Of a DNA stretch of 30,347 bases, positions 1-30,347 are shown in pieces (positions within the stretch are counted from its first letter, which is position 1; every line of letters begins with the position of its first letter). The DNA is from a virus. Lineage: Duplodnaviria > Heunggongvirae > Uroviricota > Caudoviricetes. The notes below the pieces were generated by a model that was not told where the DNA came from, made no database searches, and saw only the letters and a list, made by a program, of their open reading frames with translations. The position numbers were made by a program, and so were the translations under genes. The DNA lies in IMG/VR virus record IMGVR_UViG_3300029619_000251; one strand, 5' to 3'.

Positions 1-1011
1 TTATAACGTCACTCCGCCTTTTAGTGGATTCAGAGCGACGGCATTTTGCAGATAGTCAGGCGCAAGGTGCGCATAGGCCATCGTCTGCTGAATGCTCGCA
101 TGTCCCAGAATCTGTTGCAGTGCGATTATATTGCCCCCATTCATCATGAAATGGCTTGCGAATGTATGCCGCAGGATATGGGTTGCCTGATTGGGTGGTA
201 TATCAGGTTTCACTCTGCGTAAAATCCCGCAAAATTTCTCATAATCAACTTTGAATAATTTGGCGCTGGCCTCCTCTTTAACTTTTTTCTCCAGTTCCTC
301 AGAAATCGGCACGGTTCGCTTTTTACCGTTTTTGGTTTTCAGGAAGGTAACCCTGCAATTTGTAATCTGTGCTGGTTTTAGCGTGGCAACTTCCGTCCAT
401 CTTCCTCCAGTGCTCAGACATAAAAGCGCGACAAGTAAGTCATCACCAGCCAAAACATTTAACAGTTTTTCGATTTCTGCTTTTTCCAGGAACGTCATTT
501 CAGGGTTGGCCTCCGCCAGTGGCGGCAGTCCGTGAATTGGGTGTTGCCCGGAAAATTCATCCAATTGAATTAATTTTGTGAACATGCCGGATAATCGGTA
601 CATGTCACGGTTTATCGTTGCGGCACTGATACCATCACGTAGTCGCATGGAACGATAATCCATCAAAGCCCTTTTGCTCATCCTGTTCACTGGTATATCA
701 CCTATGCCGCTGATGGTTTTGAGTAGATGATTAAACTCTTTTGTTCCATGCTCGTGGTTTTGCCCGTGATATTTCCACCAGATGTCCAGCAACTCACTCA
801 AAGTCCGGCGGTCTGCTCGCTGGCCTCCCCATTCTTTCTGACTGGCATTGGCGATTGTGTATCGCTCAAATGCTAGTGCTTCAGCTTTTCTTTCGAATTT
901 CCTGCGGATGCGTTTTCCGTCGCGACCGCGAGGTCTAATGTCCACTTCATAGCGACCATCATCGAGCTTCTTAATTGCCATAAGAAAGCCCTCCGGCGCT
1001 GTATTCACCAT
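1..1011 (-). CDS. int: tyrosine site-specific integrase (P2 Int family)
   Basis: 336-codon ORF whose stop codon is at window positions 1-3. C-terminal catalytic-domain motifs (HILRHTFASH, MAYAHLAPDY). Lies directly downstream of the repressor gene, as in the P2 C-int operon. An internal ATG at 981 (MAIKKL...) has a GGAGG at better spacing and may be the true start. Confidence 0.9.
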   Translation of the reverse strand: MVNTAPEGFLMAIKKLDDGRYEVDIRPRGRDGKRIRRKFERKAEALAFERYTIANASQKEWGGQRADRRTLSELLDIWWKYHGQNHEHGTKEFNHLLKTISGIGDIPVNRMSKRALMDYRSMRLRDGISAATINRDMYRLSGMFTKLIQLDEFSGQHPIHGLPPLAEANPEMTFLEKAEIEKLLNVLAGDDLLVALLCLSTGGRWTEVATLKPAQITNCRVTFLKTKNGKKRTVPISEELEKKVKEEASAKLFKVDYEKFCGILRRVKPDIPPNQATHILRHTFASHFMMNGGNIIALQQILGHASIQQTMAYAHLAPDYLQNAVALNPLKGGVTL

Positions 1012-1753: not shown

Positions 1754-1926
1754 TTATGAATGAGCCGCGTTGTATTGCTCAGTTACTGCGTAACGAAAGC
1801 CCTAGGGCGATTGACTTCACCATCACCCACGGTAAGGGGCGTAAGGGAATCATTATCCGCACCAAAAAACAGAGTCCGTTAAAAAAGGCTCTGACCTTTC
1901 TGAAAAGCCGGAGGGTCTGGAAATGA
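1729..1926 (+). CDS. hypothetical early protein (P2 orf78 position)
   Basis: 65-aa ORF between cox and B; alternative ATG at 1756. No recognisable domain. Confidence 0.35.
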   Translation: MAFVDGVVIMNEPRCIAQLLRNESPRAIDFTITHGKGRKGIIIRTKKQSPLKKALTFLKSRRVWK

Positions 1927-2423
1927 CAGTGATGACGCTCAATCTCGTCGAAAAACAGCCAGCAGCTATGCGCCGGATAATTGGCAAGCATCTTGCCGTC
2001 CCTCGCTGGCAGGATACATGTGATTATTATAATCAGATGATGGAGCGCGAACGGCTAACGGTTTGCTTTCATGCACAGTTAAAACAGCGTCACGCAACGA
2101 TGCGTTTTGAAGAAATGAACGACGTCGAACGTGAACGACTGGTATGTGCAATTGATGAATTGCGCGGGGCATTCTCAAAACGCCGTCAGGTTGGCGCAAG
2201 TGAGTATGCATATATTAGCTTTTTAACTGTCAGTCAGCGCCGTACTTTATTTATGCATGCCGGATTGACTGAAAAAGAATTCAACCAGCCATACTGGCGA
2301 ATTAATGAAGAGTCATGTTACTGGCGTGATGCTTTATTCCGTGCATTACGTGAATTATTCAGCCTGTTTGAGTATGCACCGACAATTCTGACGTCGGTAA
2401 AACCAGAGCAATATCTGCATTAA
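1923..2423 (+). CDS. B: replication protein B (helicase-loader-like)
   Basis: 166-aa ORF with GGAGGG upstream, in the position and of the length I recall for P2 gpB. Confidence 0.7.
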   Translation: MTVMTLNLVEKQPAAMRRIIGKHLAVPRWQDTCDYYNQMMERERLTVCFHAQLKQRHATMRFEEMNDVERERLVCAIDELRGAFSKRRQVGASEYAYISFLTVSQRRTLFMHAGLTEKEFNQPYWRINEESCYWRDALFRALRELFSLFEYAPTILTSVKPEQYLH

Positions 2424-5775: not shown

Positions 5776-5990
5776 GTAAAAACACAACGTAATTTGATAT
5801 GGCATTGAATGGCTTATGCGGAGCAGTTATGGGGCAGCAGAAGGTCAATAGCATGCTGAATTAGAAGGCTAAATGCTATTGAGTGACTAGCATGTCGGTA
5901 AGGACAGCCGTTTGATCCGGGTCATAAAAGGCCATCCATTTAGTCTAATAAAATCATTGCGGGTAACCTTATGTCGACGCATAATTCGTC

Positions 5991-6005
5991 TTGAGCGAAG
6001 TCTTG
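5991..6005. repeat. 15-bp direct repeat TTGAGCGAAGTCTTG, copy 1
   Basis: Exact 15-mer repeated at 6255-6269; the two copies bracket the terminator and the small ORF. Confidence 0.6.
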
Positions 6006-6035
6006 TCAGTCTTTCATCGTATTGATGATGGGCGC

Positions 6036-6066
6036 AAAAAAACCACCCTGGCAGGTGGTTTTTTTG
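6036..6066. terminator. bidirectional Rho-independent terminator
   Basis: AAAAAAACCACC-CTGGCA-GGTGGTTTTTTT: a hairpin with an A-tract on one side and a T-tract on the other. Downstream of A on the + strand and of the small ORF on the - strand. Confidence 0.6.
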
Positions 6067-6077
6067 TTTGAAGCATA

Positions 6078-6191
6078 TTAAAGCATAATGCTGACATTGA
6101 TATTACTGACGTTTACTGACAAACCACTCGGACTACCGTTTGGATAGCCAAAGAGGGCCAGAACGAGAATGCAGTAATAGCATTTCTTCAT
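6078..6191 (-). CDS. 37-aa hydrophobic small protein (hypothetical; candidate small membrane peptide)
   Basis: MKKCYYCILVLALFGYPNGSPSGLSVNVSNINVSIML, with AGGAGG 4 nt upstream of the ATG and the bidirectional terminator immediately after the stop. The 88-aa extension listed in the ORF track has no RBS. Confidence 0.3.
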   Translation of the reverse strand: MKKCYYCILVLALFGYPNGSPSGLSVNVSNINVSIML

Positions 6192-6254
6192 ATTGCCTCC
6201 TGTAAGTAGAGGGCAACTTCCACCGGTATATGCGCTTCTTAGGTGGAATGACTT

Positions 6255-6269
6255 TTGAGCGAAGTCTTG
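6255..6269. repeat. 15-bp direct repeat TTGAGCGAAGTCTTG, copy 2
   Basis: Exact copy of 5991-6005. Confidence 0.6.
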
Positions 6270-6669
6270 CCCTGAAATAATGCTCTGTTTAAACGCAAAG
6301 TGATTTGGCATATCACCGAACAGAGAACCGGAAAAACACAACATATAGTATGTCGTTGTTTCTAGACATACATTCTATGTTGTGTAACAAGGGCTTTGCA
6401 TTAAACATGTTTGAGATTTTATTGATGTAGCTCAAAGTAAAAAACAGAGACTACGGATGATAAGGTCTTGAAAGCAATGTAAATTTTTTAAAGTTGCCAA
6501 TTGCTTAAAAATGTACAGTTGCGGTATGGCGTACTTAAAAAGCTATGCATGCAACAAGTGAATGTTTTTGCATGCGTTGGGGATGTCCGTTCAGGCTGCG
6601 TGCGGTCAGGACTGGTGCGGATCCATAGTATCTATGCAACTGCATTAAAACCGCCCCGTGAAGCGGGCG

Positions 6670-16104: not shown

Positions 16105-16740
16105 ATGAACACTCTCGCAAATATCCAGGAACTCGCGCGCGCACTGCGCAACATGATTCGCACCGGCCTTGTCGTCGAAACCAACCTTAAAGCCGGTCGC
16201 TGCCGTGTGCAGACCGGTGGCATGTGCACCGACTGGCTTCAGTGGCTGACCTGTCGTGCCGGTCGTTCGCGCACATGGTGGGCACCTTCCGTGGGGGAGC
16301 AGGTGCTGATTCTGGCCGTGGGCGGTGAACTTGACACGGCGTTTGTTCTGCCGGGGATTTATTCCGGCGATAACCCCGCGCCGTCTGCGTCGGCGGATGC
16401 CCTGCATATCCGTTTCCCTGACGGGGCGGTGATTGAGTATGAACCCGAAACCAGTGCACTCACGGTAAGCGGAATTAAAACGGCCAGCGTGACGGCTTCT
16501 GATTCTGTTACTGCCACGGTGCCGGTGGTCATGGTGAAAGCATCAACCCGCGTCACCCTGGACACACCGGAGGTGGTCTGCACCAACAGGCTGATTACCG
16601 GCACGCTGGAAGTGCAGAAGGGCGGGACGATGCGCGGCAACATTGAACACACCGGCGGTGAACTCTCATCAAACGGTAAGGTACTGCATACCCATAAACA
16701 CCCCGGCGACAGTGGCGGCACAACAGGGGGACCTCTATGA
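16105..16740 (+). CDS. V: baseplate assembly/spike protein V
   Basis: 211-aa ORF, first gene after the S-V gap. Confidence 0.85.
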   Translation: MNTLANIQELARALRNMIRTGLVVETNLKAGRCRVQTGGMCTDWLQWLTCRAGRSRTWWAPSVGEQVLILAVGGELDTAFVLPGIYSGDNPAPSASADALHIRFPDGAVIEYEPETSALTVSGIKTASVTASDSVTATVPVVMVKASTRVTLDTPEVVCTNRLITGTLEVQKGGTMRGNIEHTGGELSSNGKVLHTHKHPGDSGGTTGGPL

Positions 16741-17997: not shown

Positions 17998-18601
17998 TTC
18001 GCGCCTGCTGCCGACCGGCTCATCACCGCTTGAAGTCGCCGCCGCAAAAGCCTGTGCGGAAATTGAAAAAACGCCGGTCAGTATTCGTGAGCTGTGGAAC
18101 CCGGATACCTGTCCGGCAAATCTGCTGCCGTGGCTGGCGTGGTCATTTTCGGTCGACAGGTGGGATGATAAATGGCCGGAAGCGACAAAACGCGCTGTTA
18201 TCCGCGATGCGTATTTCATTCACTGCCATAAGGGCACTATAGGCGCAATCCGGCGTGTGGTGGAGCCGCTCGGCTATCTGATTGAGGTAAGGGAGTGGTG
18301 GCAGCTCAACGAGGAGCCGGGGACGTTCCGTATCGTTGTTGGTGTGCTTGAGCAGGGTATTACCGAGGAAATGTATCAGGAGCTGGAGCGCCTCGTTGCT
18401 GATGCAAAACCGGCAAGCCGCCATCTGACGGGACTGGCTATCAGCTTAAGTACAACCGGCAACATTTTTGCCGGTGCGGGATGCTATCACGGCGACGCCA
18501 TGACGGTTTATCCCTACACCCCGGAGGCCATTATTGTCGGAGGGGATTATTTCCCGGCCTCGGCCATTCATTTAATTGATAACCTGAGAGTAAACGCATG
18601 A
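17990..18601 (+). CDS. I: baseplate protein I
   Basis: 203-aa ORF with GGAGG upstream; overlaps the J stop and the H start. Confidence 0.8.
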   Translation: MSDSRLLPTGSSPLEVAAAKACAEIEKTPVSIRELWNPDTCPANLLPWLAWSFSVDRWDDKWPEATKRAVIRDAYFIHCHKGTIGAIRRVVEPLGYLIEVREWWQLNEEPGTFRIVVGVLEQGITEEMYQELERLVADAKPASRHLTGLAISLSTTGNIFAGAGCYHGDAMTVYPYTPEAIIVGGDYFPASAIHLIDNLRVNA

Positions 18602-19782
18602 CAGTGAAATACTACGCCATTCTGACTAATCAGGGCGCAGCACGGCTGGCTAACGCGACGATGCTCGGCAGTAAGCTGAATCTGACGCAAATGGCCGTTG
18701 GTGATGCGAATGGTGTCTTGCCGACACCAGACCCGGCACAGACAAAACTGATTAACCAGAAACGCATCGCGCCGCTGAATCTTCTGAGTGTTGACCCGAA
18801 CAACCAGAGCCAGATTATTGCGGAGCAAATCATCCCTGAGAACGAGGGCGGATTCTGGATCCGTGAGATTGGGCTTTATGATGATGAAGGCGTACTCATT
18901 GCGGTGGCGAACTGCCCGGAAACGTACAAACCGCAGTTGCAGGAAGGCAGTGGTCGTACCCAGACTATCCGCATGATTCTGGTTGTCACGAATACCGAAG
19001 CTATCACGCTGAAAATCGACCCGTCGGTGGTACTGGCGACCCGTAAATACGTGGATGATAAAGTCCTGGAATTAAAGCTGTATGTGGATGACCAGATGAG
19101 AAACCACATTGCCGCACAGGATCCTCATACCCAGTATGCGCAGAAACATAATCCGACATTTACCGGAGAACCAAAAGCGCCGACGCCTGCCGCAGGAAAT
19201 AACACCACGCGGATTGCGACCACTGAGTTTGTTCAGGCCGCTATTACCGCTCTGATTAACGGTGCGCCAGCCACGCTGGACACACTGAAAGAAATTGCCG
19301 CAGCCATTAACAATGACCCGAAATTCAGCACCACCATTAACAATGCGCTGTCAGGTAAGCAGCCACTGGATGAGACGCTGACTCATTTGAGTGGAAAGGA
19401 TATAGCTGGTCTTCTCACATACCTTGGTTTGGGAGAAGCGGCAAAACGGAATGTGGGCACAGGAGATAATCAGATACCGGATATGGGAGCATTCGCTTCT
19501 GGTTCGGGATGGTTCAGGCTACCAGGTGGATATATTGTTCAGTTTGGCACTTTTGCAGGAAACACGACCCGCTTTATCAGTGGACACTTCCCTATACCAT
19601 TCCCTAATCAGCCGATGGTTTCAGTCAGTGTTATGTCTGATGCCGTTCAGTCAGACCCGTCGATTCCTGCCCCGCAGGTTTTGTCTGTAAATTTTGAACA
19701 TATCAGTAATTCAGCGTGGCGTGTGGCAACCAGTGATATCTCACAGCAATACAGATTCAGTTATATTTCGATAGGACGGTAG
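18598..19782 (+). CDS. H: tail fibre protein H: constant N-terminal part plus variable C-terminal part Hv in the current orientation
   Basis: 394 aa; the N-terminal approximately 270 aa resemble the P2 H N-terminus as recalled (GGFW.RE.GLYDD.G.LIAVAN...YKP...EGSGR). The recombination site lies inside the gene at 19411-19438. Confidence 0.85.
   Translation: MTVKYYAILTNQGAARLANATMLGSKLNLTQMAVGDANGVLPTPDPAQTKLINQKRIAPLNLLSVDPNNQSQIIAEQIIPENEGGFWIREIGLYDDEGVLIAVANCPETYKPQLQEGSGRTQTIRMILVVTNTEAITLKIDPSVVLATRKYVDDKVLELKLYVDDQMRNHIAAQDPHTQYAQKHNPTFTGEPKAPTPAAGNNTTRIATTEFVQAAITALINGAPATLDTLKEIAAAINNDPKFSTTINNALSGKQPLDETLTHLSGKDIAGLLTYLGLGEAAKRNVGTGDNQIPDMGAFASGSGWFRLPGGYIVQFGTFAGNTTRFISGHFPIPFPNQPMVSVSVMSDAVQSDPSIPAPQVLSVNFEHISNSAWRVATSDISQQYRFSYISIGR
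19411..19438. repeat. invertase crossover site L (hix/gix/cix-like) inside H
   Basis: CTTCTCACATACC-TT-GGTTTGGGAGAAG, a near-perfect 28-bp palindrome. Its inner 15 bp (19424-19438) are the exact reverse complement of 21284-21298. Confidence 0.75.
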
Positions 19783-19784
19783 AA

Positions 19785-20225
19785 ATGCAGAAATATATTT
19801 TCAGTGCCGATAAAAATGCGTTTTTCCCTGTGGAGCTTAAAATCGCTTATCAGGAATCCGGCGAATGGCCCGATGATGGAATCGAAATTGACGACACTGT
19901 TGCTGCCGAATTTATGAAGGAAGCACCAGAAGGAAAATACAGAGGTGTCATCGACGGAATGCCTGCATGGATTGATATTCCACCGCCAACTCATGAGGAA
20001 CAAATTGCCGCAGCCGAACTGAAAAAGCAGCAATTGATTAATCAGGTCAACGAATACATAAACAGTAAGCAATGGCCTGGTAAAGCGGCGATTGGTCGCC
20101 TGAAAGGTGAGGAACTGGTGCAATATAATTTGTGGCTGGATTATCTGGACGCACTGGAACTGGTCGATACTTCCGGTGCGCCAGATATTGAATGGCCTAC
20201 GCCTCCGGCAGTTCAGGCCAGATGA
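19785..20225 (+). CDS. G: tail fibre assembly chaperone G
   Basis: 146-aa ORF immediately after H; its C-terminus (...DTSGAPDIEWPTPP) parallels the C-terminus of G' (...DTSTAPDVIWPELPEA). Confidence 0.8.
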   Translation: MQKYIFSADKNAFFPVELKIAYQESGEWPDDGIEIDDTVAAEFMKEAPEGKYRGVIDGMPAWIDIPPPTHEEQIAAAELKKQQLINQVNEYINSKQWPGKAAIGRLKGEELVQYNLWLDYLDALELVDTSGAPDIEWPTPPAVQAR

Positions 20226-20799
20226 CATCCGGAGCGGTGCTGGTATCTGTTATCGTCACCGCATCAATGTAATCCAGCACAGTGTTAAGTCGGGTGGTTT
20301 CTGCCTGCGTCAACTTCCGCCCGGCCCGCAACTTCAACTGAATCAGACTTATGGAATCCATTGCCGCATCAGCCAGTGACTGGCGCTTGGTTTCTGCCGC
20401 TTCTACTGCGGCACGATGTTGTGCCTCGGTATCTGTCACCCATTTTTCACCATCCCATTTATCGTATGGTGTTAACGGGGCGATAGTGGTTGTATTTTCA
20501 GGGTAATCACCCGGAGCTGTGATTTCTTTCGATTCTCCTGTTTCGGTGCTATAGATGATTTCACCGCGATGGTCTGGCACATATTCCCATGAGTTAAAAT
20601 CTGCAGAACGGCAGATTGCATAACCAGCTTTATGTGTAACTGGTGCATCTAAACAAGAACATGCCGGGATACCGACGCCAACCGCAAGATATTCAGTTGA
20701 CGTGGAAATATATTCCCGTGTTTCACCATCGTAGTTATAAACGGTAACATCCCCTGCCTTTGTTGCAATAAGCTCACTATTTAATATTGCTTTATGCAT
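20197..20799 (-). CDS. alternative tail fibre assembly chaperone G'
   Basis: 200-aa ORF on the opposite strand, converging on G with a 3' overlap; its start overlaps the Hv' stop. Confidence 0.75.
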   Translation of the reverse strand: MHKAILNSELIATKAGDVTVYNYDGETREYISTSTEYLAVGVGIPACSCLDAPVTHKAGYAICRSADFNSWEYVPDHRGEIIYSTETGESKEITAPGDYPENTTTIAPLTPYDKWDGEKWVTDTEAQHRAAVEAAETKRQSLADAAMDSISLIQLKLRAGRKLTQAETTRLNTVLDYIDAVTITDTSTAPDVIWPELPEA

Positions 20800-21296
20800 C
20801 AGGCTGCCCTCACGATATAGTTAAATGCAATATTACGCGGACGCGTTTCTGAGGCTGCGACACCTAAACCAGCCACTGATTGTTTATATGTTTTAAAGGT
20901 TCCATAATCCGGTGCTGGTAATCCGGCATCGTTTGTGTTTCCTCTTTTGATAATGTCAGTGCCACTATTTACCCAGCTTTCATCAAAATAGAAATTAATA
21001 GTTGCATCAGTCACAATCGTGGATCTTGACGGTAATCCATGAGCATGATCCTCCGTTGCATATCCCTGAATACTTAAAATAGAGCGACCTGTATCAATCC
21101 CACGCCCGTCATCCCAGCCACGAATAAACTCACCACGTAAATCAGGCAATTTATTTGTCGGGTAAACTTTTGCCAGTTCCGGGTATTCTTCAGCAGAAAA
21201 AGCTGCACCATTGCATTTCAGCCAGCCTGTTGGCGGAGTGGCTGAAGGCCACGGAACAGGGACACCAACAGGTAATGCAGAGCCTTCTCCCAAACC
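20799..21296 (-). CDS. alternative tail fibre C-terminal cassette Hv' (no start of its own; fused to the constant part of H after inversion)
   Basis: Open frame is continuous with crossover site R. After inversion H would read ...LTYLGLGEGSALPVGVPVPW... in frame. It ends with NIAFNYIVRAA, resembling the C-termini of Mu/P1-type S fibres as recalled. Confidence 0.7.
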   Translation of the reverse strand, partial: GLGEGSALPVGVPVPWPSATPPTGWLKCNGAAFSAEEYPELAKVYPTNKLPDLRGEFIRGWDDGRGIDTGRSILSIQGYATEDHAHGLPSRSTIVTDATINFYFDESWVNSGTDIIKRGNTNDAGLPAPDYGTFKTYKQSVAGLGVAASETRPRNIAFNYIVRAA

Positions 21297-21310
21297 AACG
21301 TTTTATGGAG
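21284..21310. repeat. invertase crossover site R
   Basis: CTTCTCCCAAACC-AA-CGTTTTATGGAG; the inner half is the exact inverted repeat of site L. Confidence 0.75.
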
Positions 21311-21400
21311 TCGGTTAAATATGATGTTGAAAGAAGGGAATGTCCTAGTATTGATTGTTAGATAAAAATGGAAAGTGCTGATTGTAACGGTATATTTTAA

Positions 21401-21434
21401 GATGGTAACACCAAATGGTGCTACCATCTTTATT
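21401..21434. terminator. hairpin terminator between the invertible segment and the moron
   Basis: GATGGTAACACC-AAAT-GGTGCTACCATC (12-bp stem, one mismatch) followed by TTTATT on the + strand. It also lies immediately 3' of the 105-aa gene on the - strand. Confidence 0.5.
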
Positions 21435-21436
21435 AG

Positions 21437-21754
21437 TTATCTGTTCCTTCTGAGGATTCCGCTACTCCCTTGTGTTGTAGGGTTTAATTTTTTCCAATAA
21501 TGATAACCTTGTGATGTAATCCTTAGAGAGGCAGTATCTACACTCCATCCATCAATACTTTCAGGAGAACCATCGAAGATTACCTTTCCTGTAAGATACC
21601 CATCGTCATGCAGAAAGGCGATATATCCATAAACTTCTTTTAAATCACCAATTTCATTGACTAGGCATTCCCACGCTTGAACAGTGATTCTCTCTGGATA
21701 GGCTTCGACAAAATATTTCAGTGTGGTAGTTTTTTTATTGGTATCGATGTTCAT
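21437..21754 (-). CDS. hypothetical 105-aa protein, AT-rich moron (candidate accessory, defence or anti-defence gene)
   Basis: Clean ORF with AAGGAAAA 7 nt upstream of the ATG and a terminator after the stop. It sits in a 650-bp AT-rich island in the G-FI cargo position. No motif I can recognise. Confidence 0.55.
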   Translation of the reverse strand: MNIDTNKKTTTLKYFVEAYPERITVQAWECLVNEIGDLKEVYGYIAFLHDDGYLTGKVIFDGSPESIDGWSVDTASLRITSQGYHYWKKLNPTTQGSSGILRRNR

Positions 21755-21891
21755 CAGATTTTCCTTTTATTGAGGTCAACCTATCTTACCATACTTAATT
21801 GTTTCACATGGGAATGCTAAGTGGGCTATGTATCCACTATCAGTAAATATTCTTATCCAGCAAGATTACTGTAACTGAGTGCTCCATAGCC

Positions 21892-21919
21892 TTGTCCGCT
21901 TGTACAGATATAGATAATT
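21892..21919 (+). promoter_or_regulatory. putative sigma70 promoter of the invertase gene
   Basis: TTGTCC (21892-21897), 16-bp spacer, ATAATT (21914-21919), about 35 bp upstream of the invertase ATG. Confidence 0.35.
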
Positions 21920-21952
21920 CTGTGTCATTATTCTGTTTTTATAGGGATTTTT

Positions 21953-22546
21953 ATGCGTATAGGTTATGTTCGTGTATCAACAAATGACCAGAACACGGAA
22001 TTGCAGCGTAACGCGCTGGAGTGCGCAGGATGTGAGCTGATTTTTGAGGATAAAATCAGCGGCACGAAGTCCGACCGACCGGGACTGAAAAAACTGCTCA
22101 GAACATTATCAGCAGGTGACACTCTGGTGGTCTGGAAGCTGGACAGGCTGGGGCGTAGTATGCGGCATCTGGTCATTCTGGTTGAGGAGCTGCGCGAACG
22201 CGGCGTTAATTTTCGCAGCCTGACGGATGCTATTGATACCAGCACGCCGATGGGGCGCTTTTTCTTTCATGTGATGGGTGCCCTGGCAGAAATGGAGCGA
22301 GAACTCATTGTCGAGCGGACACGCGCCGGACTGGAAGCGGCCAGAGCCAAAGGTCGTATTGGTGGCAGACGACCGAAACTCACCACGAGTGAGTGGGAGC
22401 AGGTCGGACGGTTGCTGGCTGCGGGGGAATCTCGTCAACGTGTGGCGCTGATTTTTGATATTGGCCTGTCCACGCTCTATAAAAAATTCCCCTCATCAGC
22501 GACAAAGAATAAATTGTGTCATCCCTTAGCCAACCGGGACAAATAG
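21953..22546 (+). CDS. serine DNA invertase (Hin/Gin/Cin/Pin family)
   Basis: 197 aa. N-terminal catalytic motif MRIGYVRVSTNDQNTELQRNAL with the active-site serine; C-terminal HTH (...GRRPKLTTSEWEQVGRLLAAGESRQRVALIFDIGLSTLYKKFP) closely resembles Gin/Hin as recalled. Confidence 0.9.
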   Translation: MRIGYVRVSTNDQNTELQRNALECAGCELIFEDKISGTKSDRPGLKKLLRTLSAGDTLVVWKLDRLGRSMRHLVILVEELRERGVNFRSLTDAIDTSTPMGRFFFHVMGALAEMERELIVERTRAGLEAARAKGRIGGRRPKLTTSEWEQVGRLLAAGESRQRVALIFDIGLSTLYKKFPSSATKNKLCHPLANRDK

Positions 22547-22605: not shown

Positions 22606-23796
22606 ATGAGTGACTATCATCACGGCGTGCAGGTGCTGGAGATTAACGACGGCACCCGCGTCATTTCCACCGTATCCACTGCCATTGTCGGCATGGTCTG
22701 CACGGCCAGCGATGCGGATGCGGAAACCTTCCCCCTCAATAAACCTGTGCTGATTACCAATGTGCAGAACGCAATTGCAAAGGCCGGTAAAAAAGGCACG
22801 CTGGCGGCATCGTTGCAGGCCATCGCTGACCAGTCAAAACCGGTCACCGTTGTCGTGCGCGTGGAAGACGGCACCGGTGATGACGAGGAAACGAAACTCG
22901 CGCAGACCGTTTCCAATATCATCGGCACCACCGACGAAAACGGTCAGTACACCGGACTGAAAGCCCTGCTGGCGGCGGAGTCGGTAACCGGTGTTAAACC
23001 GCGTATTCTCGGTGTGCCGGGACTGGATACCAAAGAGGTGGCTGTTGCACTGGCATCCGTCTGTCAGAAGCTGCGCGCTTTCGGATATATCAGCGCATGG
23101 GGCTGTAAGACCATTTCCGAGGTGAAAGCCTACCGCCAGAATTTCAGCCAGCGTGAGCTGATGGTCATCTGGCCGGATTTCCTCGCATGGGATACGGTCA
23201 GCAGCACCACCGCCACCGCGTATGCCACCGCCCGTGCGCTGGGTCTGCGCGCTAAAATCGACCAGGAGCAGGGCTGGCATAAAACGCTGTCCAATGTCGG
23301 GGTAAACGGTGTTACCGGCATCAGTGCTTCTGTATTCTGGGATTTGCAGGAGTCCGGCACCGATGCTGACCTGCTTAACGAGTCAGGCGTCACTACGCTG
23401 ATTCGTCGCGACGGTTTCCGATTCTGGGGTAACCGTACCTGCTCTGATGACCCGCTGTTCCTCTTTGAAAACTACACCCGCACCGCGCAGGTGCTGGCCG
23501 ACACGATGGCTGAGGCGCACATGTGGGCGGTGGACAAGCCCATCACCGCAACGCTGATTCGCGACATCGTTGACGGCATCAATGCCAAATTCCGTGAGCT
23601 GAAAACAAACGGCTATATCGTGGATGCGACCTGCTGGTTCAGCGAAGAATCCAACGATGCGGAAACCCTCAAGGCCGGAAAACTGTATATCGACTACGAC
23701 TATACACCGGTGCCTCCTCTTGAAAACCTGACCCTGCGCCAGCGTATTACCGATAAATACCTGGCAAATCTGGTCACCTCGGTTAACAGCAATTAA
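22606..23796 (+). CDS. FI: contractile tail sheath protein
   Basis: 396-aa ORF with GGAG upstream; length and position match P2 gpFI as recalled. Confidence 0.9.
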   Translation: MSDYHHGVQVLEINDGTRVISTVSTAIVGMVCTASDADAETFPLNKPVLITNVQNAIAKAGKKGTLAASLQAIADQSKPVTVVVRVEDGTGDDEETKLAQTVSNIIGTTDENGQYTGLKALLAAESVTGVKPRILGVPGLDTKEVAVALASVCQKLRAFGYISAWGCKTISEVKAYRQNFSQRELMVIWPDFLAWDTVSSTTATAYATARALGLRAKIDQEQGWHKTLSNVGVNGVTGISASVFWDLQESGTDADLLNESGVTTLIRRDGFRFWGNRTCSDDPLFLFENYTRTAQVLADTMAEAHMWAVDKPITATLIRDIVDGINAKFRELKTNGYIVDATCWFSEESNDAETLKAGKLYIDYDYTPVPPLENLTLRQRITDKYLANLVTSVNSN

Positions 23797-29363: not shown

Positions 29364-29444
29364 ATCCTCAATTTGCTTGCTGCTTAATGCATTGCAGATG
29401 ATTTGCTTCCGTTATACTAGCGTCAGTTGATAGCGGGAGTATTT

Positions 29445-30347
29445 ATGAATCAATCTTATGGACGGCTGGTCAGTCGGGCGGCGATTGCTGCAACGGCGAT
29501 GGCTTCACTGCTATTGCTGATTAAAATTTTTGCATGGTGGTATACCGGGTCGGTGAGTATTCTCGCCGCGCTGGTGGATTCGCTGGTGGATATCGGCGCG
29601 TCGTTGACGAATTTACTGGTGGTGCGATATTCCCTGCAACCTGCCGACGATAATCACTCGTTTGGTCACGGTAAAGCTGAGTCCCTCGCGGCGCTGGCGC
29701 AAAGTATGTTTATCTCCGGTTCAGCACTATTCCTGTTTTTGACGGGTATTCAACATCTGATATCTCCAACACCGATGACAGATCCAGGCGTCGGGGTTAT
29801 CGTGACAATTGTGGCGCTAATTTGTACGATTATCCTTGTCTCGTTTCAGCGGTGGGTGGTGCGCCGGACGCAAAGCCAGGCGGTGCGGGCTGATATGCTA
29901 CATTACCAGTCTGATGTTATGATGAACGGCGCAATTCTGCTGGCGCTGGGGTTGTCCTGGTACGGCTGGCATCGCGCCGATGCTCTGTTTGCATTGGGAA
30001 TCGGCATCTATATTTTATATAGCGCGTTACGCATGGGATATGAGGCGGTACAGTCATTACTGGATCGCGCATTGCCTGATGAAGAACGGCAAGAAATTAT
30101 TGATATCGTGACTTCCTGGCCGGGTGTTAGCGGCGCTCACGATCTTCGCACGCGGCAGTCAGGGCCGACCCGCTTTATTCAGATTCATTTGGAAATGGAA
30201 GACTCTCTGCCTTTGGTTCAGGCACATATGGTGGCGGATCAGGTAGAGCAGGCTATTTTACGGCGTTTTCCGGGATCGGATGTGATTATCCATCAGGACC
30301 CCTGTTCCGTCGTACCCAGGGAGGGTAAACGGTCTATGCTTTCATAA
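29445..30347 (+). CDS. fieF: cation-diffusion-facilitator family Fe(II)/Zn(II) efflux transporter FieF (YiiP)
   Basis: 300-aa [38 protein letters not shown]... with the CDF signature (HSFGHGKAE); matches E. coli FieF as recalled. GGGAG 7 nt upstream; stop TAA is the last codon of the window. Confidence 0.9.

Follow-up and report, generated by a model that had tools for sequence, protein, structure and literature searches.

The tail-fibre gene H in the DNA analysed here, a stretch of 30,347 nucleotides referred to below as the window, very probably belongs to a working Gin/Cin-type two-state switch of tail fibre, and so of host range, in a complete P2-like (Peduovirus) prophage of an E. coli-like host. 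Support for this reading comes from the crossover sites, the reading frames across them, the intact genes and the homology of the invertase to Gin and of its 5' coding region to the Cin enhancer, together with actual inversion in a 99%-identical sister system. An earlier note on this DNA had proposed a two-state switch of the Hin/Gin type, and our analysis supports that proposal, since every part is present and intact and the near-identical system of E. coli ST2747 has been seen in both orientations.

Crossover sites and the invertible segment

Two sites in inverted orientation, one of them inside the H frame, bound the candidate invertible DNA:

19412-19437, + strand: crossover site L, 26 bp, TTCTCACATACC-TT-GGTTTGGGAGAA, with its central dinucleotide at 19424-19425, inside the H frame
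21285-21310, + strand: crossover site R, 26 bp, TTCTCCCAAACC-AA-CGTTTTATGGAG, with its central dinucleotide at 21297-21298
19426-21296, strand not applicable: invertible segment, 1871 bp, 46.7% GC, its limits set by the two crossover dinucleotides

The AA core of site R on the plus strand reads TT when inverted. The inner halves of the two sites are identical, and the outer half of site R (CGTTTTATGGAG) is degenerate, with a poor dyad match. When the arms at 19421-19438 and 21284-21301 are aligned, 17 of 18 positions match and 15 bp are exact, which bears out the 15-bp inverted repeat reported previously; in 4.5 kb, chance alone would produce some 0.009 exact inverted pairs of 15 bp. The 30 kb of the window contain two copies of the 12-mer half-site GGTTTGGGAGAA and no more, inverted relative to each other (0.13 occurrences expected), and the sole match to the 26-bp dyad pattern in the window is the one at 19412-19437 (0.00 expected). 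Site L had also been described as a near-perfect 28-bp palindrome. The dyad is indeed present at 19411-19438, but 'near-perfect' is generous, as 22 of its 28 positions (11 of 14 pairs) are self-complementary; the central TT is among the mismatches, and the core must be asymmetric. The window thus holds the pair of inverted 26-bp sites with asymmetric cores that characterizes the Din family. A search for a third crossover site across the window found none, and a shufflon, with multiple sites and the tyrosine recombinase Rci, was rejected as a description because the window has two sites only and a serine invertase.

A constant fibre part and two alternative tip cassettes

The segment carries two convergent cassettes, each with a fibre tip and a chaperone gene, downstream of a constant part of H:

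18598-19425, + strand: Hc, the constant N-terminal portion of H, which reaches the crossover after 276 codons, fusable to either cassette
19426-19782, + strand: Hv, the variable C-terminal tip expressed in the window's orientation (Pfam Gp53-like_C, residues 307-394)
19785-20225, + strand: G, the tail-fibre assembly chaperone paired with Hv, 146 aa (Caudo_TAP, E 9e-34; PHROG 188)
20197-20799, - strand: G', an alternative tail-fibre assembly chaperone, 200 aa (Caudo_TAP, E 2e-30; PHROG 105)
20799-21296, - strand: Hv', a promoterless alternative tip (Pfam Collar, E 4e-15), in frame with Hc only once inverted

Pfam domains fall on both strands of the 1871 bp, in agreement with the 1.87-kb segment of convergent cassettes described before, and the 3' ends of G and G' overlap by 29 bp. 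Hc contains the Pfam Phage_tail_fib N-terminal domain (residues 1-150, E 1e-62) and is 41-42% identical to P2 H over two aligned blocks, the homology stopping at the crossover site. In the orientation of the window Hc and Hv make up a 394-aa H (18598-19782), which is 98.2% identical to an intact 394-aa protein of E. coli OW1E2, a strain that also has a protein 100% identical to G. Inversion of the segment in silico yields an uninterrupted H' of 441 aa, which matches intact proteins of the same length annotated in ST2747 and ABWA45 at 98.6-98.9% identity; the junction in H' reads ...LTYLGLGE-GSALPVGV..., so that the frame is kept across the crossover just as had been predicted. G' is 93% identical to an ST2747 protein annotated tfaE. 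The cassettes of the window are mosaic, with Hv and G of the OW1E2 type and Hv' and G' of the ST2747/ABWA45 type.

All four cassette ORFs are full length against intact annotated homologues, and the assumption that Hv' and G' are free of disrupting mutations is confirmed. The window accordingly has the layout of a Din-family switch, a constant part with alternative cassettes (394-aa H or 441-aa H'), each with its own Caudo_TAP chaperone gene. Hv and Hv' are not significantly similar, and Pfam assigns them to separate families (Gp53-like_C for Hv, Collar for Hv'); judged from their sequences, such unrelated tips are consistent with recognition of different receptors.

The serine invertase and a putative enhancer in its gene

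The recombinase gene lies beyond site R and contains, close to its start, a candidate enhancer:

21953-22546, + strand: Gin-family serine DNA invertase, 197 aa (Pfam Resolvase, E 3e-52, and HTH_7)
21971-22038, + strand: putative Fis-dependent recombinational enhancer inside the 5' coding region of the invertase gene, with Fis-end blocks at 21974-21988 and 22023-22037

The Resolvase and HTH_7 domains agree with the Gin/Hin catalytic and helix-turn-helix signatures noted earlier. The protein matches the Gin structures 3uj3 and 4m6f over residues 1-182 (E 5e-93), is ∼79% identical to Mu Gin and 77% to P7 Cin, and falls in PHROG 125, 'DNA invertase'; it is thus a small serine recombinase with a resolvase domain and a helix-turn-helix, close to Gin and Cin, as expected of the Din family. 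The catalytic serine had been given as Ser10. It is in fact Ser9 (MRIGYVRVS), as in Gin: the stretch MRIGYVRVS(9)TNDQ aligns with wild-type Gin MLIGYVRVSTNDQ (4m6f) and contains the YxRVST motif of the catalytic serine. The Gin structure 3uj3 has A at the catalytic serine position.

The region at 21971-22038 aligns without gaps to the feature annotated 'enhancer' in P7 cin and contains two conserved G-N13-C blocks 49 bp apart. Seven of the eight codons in these Fis-end blocks are identical in all three genes (that of the window, cin and gin), whereas elsewhere 20 of 100 are (Fisher p = 2e-4), as a retained enhancer would have it. It lies ∼707 bp from the nearest crossover point, as against ∼120 bp in Mu, a longer distance that could alter the inversion rate. 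A scan for sigma-70 promoters returned five sites where 7.1 are expected from shuffled sequence, no excess over chance, and expression of the invertase is therefore assumed here.

The moron between site R and the invertase

The invertase gene starts 642 bp past site R, close to the ∼650 bp estimated before, and the intervening DNA holds a further gene and a hairpin:

21399-21430, strand not applicable: inverted-repeat hairpin followed by TTTATT (RNA fold -21.1 kcal/mol, z = -5.9)
21437-21754, - strand: moron, 105 aa, not part of the invertible DNA and placed where fun(Z) lies in P2

The position of the moron between site R and the invertase gene agrees with the earlier statement that it is not part of the invertible DNA. 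The hairpin probably ends transcription of the V-W-J-I-H-G operon, and from the opposite side it may stop the moron transcript as well; the terminator of the P2 V operon is annotated at the equivalent place. A terminator scan did not pick up this hairpin, which was assessed by folding.

The moron cassette (21304-21943, 640 bp) is absent from the Peduovirus pro483, and its GC content of 36% is below the 53% of the window. Its insertion shifts the enhancer from ∼100 to ∼700 bp from the nearest crossover and might tune the inversion rate. The moron protein had no match in Pfam, PHROG, PADLOC or NCBIfam, and a homologue search returned five clusters only, all unnamed. In every context read, members of this family lie immediately downstream of a tail-fibre chaperone gene and convergent with it, in at least two different tail-module backgrounds. 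One AlphaFold model reached a pLDDT of 79 and the other four were poor. A Foldseek search of the PDB gave weak winged-helix (PadR/MarR-like) matches only (E ∼0.04, TM ∼0.5), from which the modelled fold may be winged-helix; these matches are too weak to name a function, and we rejected doing so. That the moron provides a new fibre-linked accessory function, for example as a regulator, exclusion or defence factor, rather than being a random passenger, is a doubtful idea to which we give a small chance.

Inversion in the ST2747 prophage

The E. coli ST2747 records CP007392, CP007393 and CP007394 represent a parent and two derivatives from three platings (PMC3983296). The prophage flanks are 99.97% identical among these records, and the 1.9-kb centre is inverted in CP007393. 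A G/A single-nucleotide polymorphism in the inner half-site travels with the segment, so that the exchange must lie within the 8 bp TTGGTTTG holding the central TT. CP007392 also has a 9.25-kb contig in the opposite orientation. This second prophage copy is more likely a redundant contig than a true duplication, as both its ends are truncated and the record closes with repeated plasmid shufflon contigs, among which it lies.

Opposite orientations in databases could also arise by exchange of homologous cassettes or as assembly artefacts, without site-specific inversion. The cassettes are clearly mosaic between genomes, and the ST2747 assemblies are early PacBio ones with redundant contigs, both of which lend this explanation some plausibility. 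However, the breakpoints in these clonal derivatives fall exactly within the 18-bp inverted repeat, a repeat far too short for long-read misassembly, and the flanks are near-identical and the marker polymorphism places the exchange within 8 bp that include the central dinucleotide. Moreover, inversion in the P2-like prophages of EPEC E2348/69 has been shown as phase variation in cultures by whole-genome sequencing (PMC4272514). We consider exchange or artefact extremely improbable as the source of the two orientations.

The ST2747 system is close to that of the window, with identities of 195 of 197 residues in the invertase, 104 of 105 in the moron and 67 of 68 positions in the enhancer. The two invertases differ at V85I and T184I, and the recombined site R of ST2747 differs from that of the window at the outermost base only (T-to-C). 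These differences bear on whether the prophage of the window is a locked fossil, its parts looking intact while inversion no longer occurs at a meaningful rate, for which the base change in site R, the pair of substitutions in the invertase or displacement of the enhancer by the moron are possible causes. The window is one sequence in which a single orientation is visible, the outer half of its site R is degenerate and one base away from the ST2747 site, and its invertase departs at two residues from the proven one, all as a fossil might have it. Nevertheless, ST2747 inverts with the same moron, the same enhancer distance and an almost identical enhancer; the substitutions are conservative or at the outermost position of the site; and the intact ORFs of the silent cassette argue for continued selection. 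Loss of switching in the window is on this evidence very unlikely, and we prefer the reading of a functional switch.

Proposed mechanism

In the functional switch, late V-W-J-I-H-G transcription, which would come solely from the upstream late promoter, would run through Hc and over site L into the adjoining cassette. In the orientation of the window this would give a 394-aa fibre with a Gp53-like tip together with the 146-aa chaperone G. The serine invertase, acting through Ser9, would pair site L with site R, probably assisted by Fis bound to the enhancer in its own 5' coding region. Cleavage at the central TT/AA dinucleotides and rotation of the strands would then flip the 1871-bp segment, setting Hc in frame with the Collar-domain tip to give the 441-aa fibre, with the 200-aa G' co-expressed. 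A lysogen population would thereby release virions with two different receptor-binding tips, which presumably recognize different receptors.

Comparison with known invertible systems

The window is 96-98% identical at the DNA level to annotated Peduovirus and prophage records with P2 gene names, which identifies it as P2-like, and the tail and baseplate gene order of those records is V W J I H ... FI FII E T U D. Four of them, pro483 (KR073661), ST2747, ABWA45 and OW1E2, share the backbone V-W-J-I-H ... FI-FII-E-T at this identity. In pro483 and the sister prophages the likeness extends to the crossover sites, the two-cassette segment and a 97-99% identical invertase annotated 'DNA invertase', while the combination of cassettes varies by genome. 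The invertase follows site R directly, after ∼50 bp, in pro483, ABWA45 and OW1E2, whereas the window and ST2747 have the 640-bp moron cassette and a variant outer half of site R.

P2 itself has the same late tail operons. Its pF late promoter region is nearly identical to that of the window, as is the DNA from the pF activator site onward, and the N-terminal and middle parts of its H are homologous to H of the window. As had been stated before, P2 has a single long H, one protein of 669 aa, with one G of 175 aa. It differs in that G is followed by a terminator and fun(Z), without an invertase and without crossover sites.

The gene order of the Mu G region is identical to that of the window (Sc-Sv-U-U'-Sv'-gin), and Mu likewise has 26-bp sites with a 2-bp core (12+2+12) and an enhancer in the 5' end of the invertase gene. 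In Mu the segment is ∼3 kb, the core is GA and gin starts 67 bp past gixR in a Mu-like phage; the window, from a P2-like phage, has a 1.87-kb segment with a TT core and an invertase gene 642 bp away. By core and half-site the C segment of P1/P7 is the closest, with a TT core and an inner half-site, GGTTTAAGAGAA, nearest to GGTTTGGGAGAA of the window, and the P7 cix sites have the same 12+2+12 architecture; that segment differs in its length of ∼4 kb and in having cin on the other side, beside cixL.

Two further P2-like systems are compared here from published descriptions. In Salmonella Fels-2 the invertase Fin (STM2702) adjoins an invertible tail-fibre segment, and inversion between LT2 and LT7 is reported (PMC7953296). 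One locus of EPEC E2348/69 has three repeats and four variants and is shufflon-like, whereas the window has two sites only.

Occurrence in E. coli genomes

The inverted junction constructed in silico matches contiguously at up to 98.5% identity and is present over at least 80% of its length in 324 complete E. coli genomes, and the native junction matches over at least 80% of its length in 21. We rejected reading these counts as a ratio of orientations, because they are confounded by the frequency of the tips among cassette variants. Many E. coli genomes have several matching places (median 2, up to 10).

This multiplicity makes it plausible that invertases act across loci, and one could suppose that the invertase of the window works in trans on other invertible segments, or that the switch mainly serves the lysogenic host by blocking adsorption of other phages, inversion producing a fibre-derived protein or altering expression in the manner of PinQ/StfE2 of e14. 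Recombinase-activated adsorption blocking through an inverted tail-fibre segment has precedent in that system (PMC12529663). Against this, the prophage appears complete, from its integrase (1-1011) to a host gene, with all tail genes examined intact, so that an ordinary role in the virion suffices. Both variants seem unlikely to us, and we retain the host-range switch of the virion as the preferred reading.

The earlier note had implied that such a switch was new to a P2-type genome, which does not hold: the same layout with an annotated 'DNA invertase' is found in the Peduovirus pro483 and in KC618326, and a recent survey describes invertases as frequent at the Z/fun hotspot of P2 (bioRxiv 10.1101/2024.10.15.618418). 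Many P2-like phages already have this switch annotated and documented, and the window is an ordinary member of this group. It adds one more case of host-range bet-hedging, and of P2-like prophages exchanging receptor-binding cassettes as modules, and raises no new question. For annotation, H should be listed as phase-variable, with either of two products, and the silent cassette should not be labelled a pseudogene or a 'partial tail protein', as it is in RefSeq records of the sister prophages.

Organization of the invertible fibre locus

The window comprises a complete P2-like prophage, whose late genes stand in the P2 order, as recognised from 96–98% identity at the DNA level with annotated E. 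coli prophages and Peduovirus genomes. Its tail-fibre locus is a classical Gin/Cin/Pin/Hin arrangement, which confirms what an earlier note had observed.

Features of the prophage and its fibre locus
1–1011, minus strand: P2-type integrase
1923–2423, plus strand: small ORF without a Pfam match, early region
6078–6344, minus strand: small ORF without a Pfam match, in the A-to-Q interval where P2 has old/tin
16105–16740: V, followed by W, J and I
18598–19782: H, 394 aa, P2-type N-terminal fibre domain and Gp53-like C-terminal tip
19412–19437: site L (26 bp), TTCTCACATACC-TT-GGTTTGGGAGAA
19785–20225: Caudo_TAP chaperone (G)
20197–20799, opposite strand: second Caudo_TAP chaperone (G')
20799–21293, opposite strand: Collar-domain fibre tip (Hv') without an N-terminus of its own
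21285–21310: site R (26 bp), TTCTCCCAAACC-AA-CGTTTTATGGAG
21399–21430: hairpin
21437–21754, minus strand: moron, 105 aa
21953–22546: serine invertase, 197 aa, Resolvase and HTH_7
21971–22038: putative enhancer, counterpart of the 'enhancer' feature of the P7 record
22606–23796: FI, followed by FII, E, T, U and D
29427–30347: host cation-efflux gene

The inverted repeat arms (19421–19438 and 21284–21301) match at 17 of 18 positions and contain the exact 15-bp repeat reported previously, about 0.009 such pairs being expected by chance in 4.5 kb. Site L had also been called a near-perfect 28-bp palindrome; it is palindromic, but only 11 of 14 pairs match. The 30-kb window contains just two copies of the inner half-site 12-mer, inverted relative to each other, where 0.13 would be expected by chance, and a search of the same 30 kb for a third crossover site found none. 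In their 12+2+12 architecture, TT core and half-site sequence the sites match the annotated cix sites of P7, and they resemble the annotated Mu gix sites.

Between the sites lie the convergent Hv/G and Hv'/G' cassettes that had been described, each tip being on the same strand as its own chaperone and on the strand opposite to the other pair. P2 has, as stated earlier, a single long H (669 aa) with a 175-aa G, and the homology of the window H to P2 H ends at the crossover. Inversion of 19426–21296 in silico fuses Hc, the constant 5' part of H, in frame to the Collar tip (...LTYLGLGE-GSALPVGV...) to give an uninterrupted 441-aa protein, in agreement with the claim that the reading frame is kept. 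All four cassette products are full length and 93–100% identical to intact annotated proteins of other genomes, and the disrupting mutations that the earlier note had allowed for in Hv' and G' are absent. The two tips are unrelated in sequence, and the chaperones are alike only over their C-terminal 80 residues (35% identity). The convergent chaperone genes have 29 bp in common at their 3' ends (20197–20225), as they do in Peduovirus pro483 and the prophage of E. coli ST2747. In RefSeq, H of sister prophages is split into an incomplete pseudogene and a 'gp53-like domain-containing protein' of its own (loci L001 3001–4200 and L002 3001–4422), and the silent cassette is given as an independent 'phage tail protein', so that mis-annotation of invertible fibre genes is routine.

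Inversion in a sister prophage

Three E. coli ST2747 genomes were sequenced, those of a parent and of two nitrofurantoin-resistant derivatives from three stepwise platings (PMC3983296). Their prophage is found at one and the same locus in each, between flanks that are 99.97–100% identical, and CP007393 has the central 1.9 kb in reverse complement compared with CP007392 and CP007394. At each end of this inverted centre the alignments share precisely the 18 bp of the repeat. The outer half-sites keep their place, whereas a polymorphic base (G/A) of the inner half-site moves along with the segment; this confines the exchange to 8 bp (TTGGTTTG) including the central TT. CP007392 also carries a second, redundant copy of the region, 9.25 kb long and truncated on either side, which lies in the opposite orientation amid repeated plasmid shufflon contigs in the last part of the record; the simplest explanation would be that the DNA preparation contained both states. 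This terminal stretch of the 'complete' chromosome (locus L019, NZ_CP007392.1 4957985–5002023) holds several redundant copies of the plasmid pilV shufflon in differing arrangements as well as the truncated prophage tail duplicate; these look like alternative contigs of heterogeneous invertible loci concatenated into the chromosome.

The ST2747 element matches the window in 195 of 197 invertase residues, 67 of 68 positions of the putative enhancer and 104 of 105 moron residues, and its site R differs only at the outermost base. Flipping is demonstrated in this sister element; the window is one sequence in a single state, for which flipping is predicted. The inverted junction built in silico aligns as a single contiguous match at up to 98.5% identity. 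Complete E. coli genomes that cover at least 80% of it number 324, against 21 with the same coverage of the native junction, counts that reflect cassette frequency as much as orientation. Intact cassettes, paired sites, a Gin-type invertase and inversion in ST2747 together support the two-state tail-fibre switch proposed earlier.

Invertase and putative enhancer

The invertase matches Gin crystal structures (E = 5e-93), and its identity is ∼79% with Mu Gin and 77% with P7 Cin. It bears the expected catalytic and HTH signatures, although the catalytic serine is Ser9 and not Ser10 as previously given. Its 5' coding region, suggested before as the place to seek an enhancer, aligns gap-free to cin and gin and contains the stretch homologous to the P7-annotated enhancer. 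The ends of this putative element, GTATCAACAAATGAC and GCGCAGGATGTGAGC, are centred 49 bp from each other, each in keeping with the G-N13-C outline of a Fis site. Codons identical among the window invertase, cin and gin make up 7 of 8 in the two end blocks versus 20 of 100 elsewhere (Fisher p = 2e-4), suggesting DNA-level constraint beyond coding at the putative Fis blocks. P2 identity picks up again at the pF activator-binding region, so that the last ∼11 invertase codons and stop (22510–22546) are backbone promoter DNA. As a result, the C-terminal tail beyond Gin homology extends over the tail sheath operon's late promoter.

The moron between segment and invertase

In P2, G is followed by the V-operon terminator, the nonessential fun(Z) on the minus strand and the pF promoter; in the window the segment is followed by the hairpin, the moron and the invertase. 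The hairpin, overlooked by a simple terminator scan, lies between site R and the moron stop codon. It is strong, with two arms of 15 nt that are 93% complementary and a folding energy of −21 kcal/mol (z = −5.9), and it probably terminates the V operon and may work bidirectionally. The moron was correctly placed outside the invertible DNA. Its cassette (21304–21943, 640 bp) is lower in GC (36%) than the window as a whole (53%) and on the left borders directly on the outer half of site R, which exists in two versions, moron-linked (C/T)TCCATAAAACG and invertase-adjacent, moron-less TTTTCATAAACG. In pro483, ABWA45 and OW1E2 the cassette is missing and the invertase directly follows site R. With the moron in between, the putative enhancer lies ∼707 bp from the nearest crossover point, compared with ∼120 bp in Mu; since the ST2747 prophage inverts, this spacing still permits inversion.

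The moron is the sole part of the locus without an explanation. No family match was found in four libraries, and homologues form only 5 clusters among 5.8 billion proteins, an unannotated family. In every context read (L012–L017) the homologue is directly downstream of, and convergent with, a Caudo_TAP chaperone gene, either in Citrobacter P2-type baseplate/fibre clusters without an invertase or in a further type of tail module. Of five AlphaFold models, four were poor; the remaining one (pLDDT 79) gave weak PadR/MarR-like matches, a faint hint of a winged-helix fold.

Related systems and possible further cargo

Switches of this kind are already known in P2-like phages. The Mu G region has the same gene order, and in pro483 (KR073661) and KC618326 the fibre and chaperone genes are duplicated and a 'DNA invertase' is annotated, the homologous cassettes of KC618326 lying in the opposite orientation. 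Fels-2 has Fin (STM2702), and its tail-fibre segment is inverted between LT2 and LT7 (PMC7953296). Whole-genome sequencing detected phase variation in two P2-like prophages of EPEC E2348/69 (PMC4272514), and a survey noted that the P2 Z/fun hotspot often holds a DNA invertase, along with an inversion of the neighbouring genes (bioRxiv 10.1101/2024.10.15.618418). In KC618326.1 (locus L004) the right site repeats the left one perfectly in inverted form and is longer, taking in 4 extra Hc bases (5849–5927), and the invertase is annotated at only 164 aa (5995–6489), a length that may reflect either truncation or merely a start codon assigned too late.

The ORFs at 6078–6344 and 1923–2423 may be further hotspot cargo. 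Directly upstream of the baseplate gene V, the ST2747 prophage has an annotated Pycsar defence pair of cyclase and effector (L005/L006 1–1879), ABWA45 has a different hypothetical gene (L007 1162–1902) and the window has nothing in that place; with such varying contents, this slot looks like an additional cargo site in these prophages.
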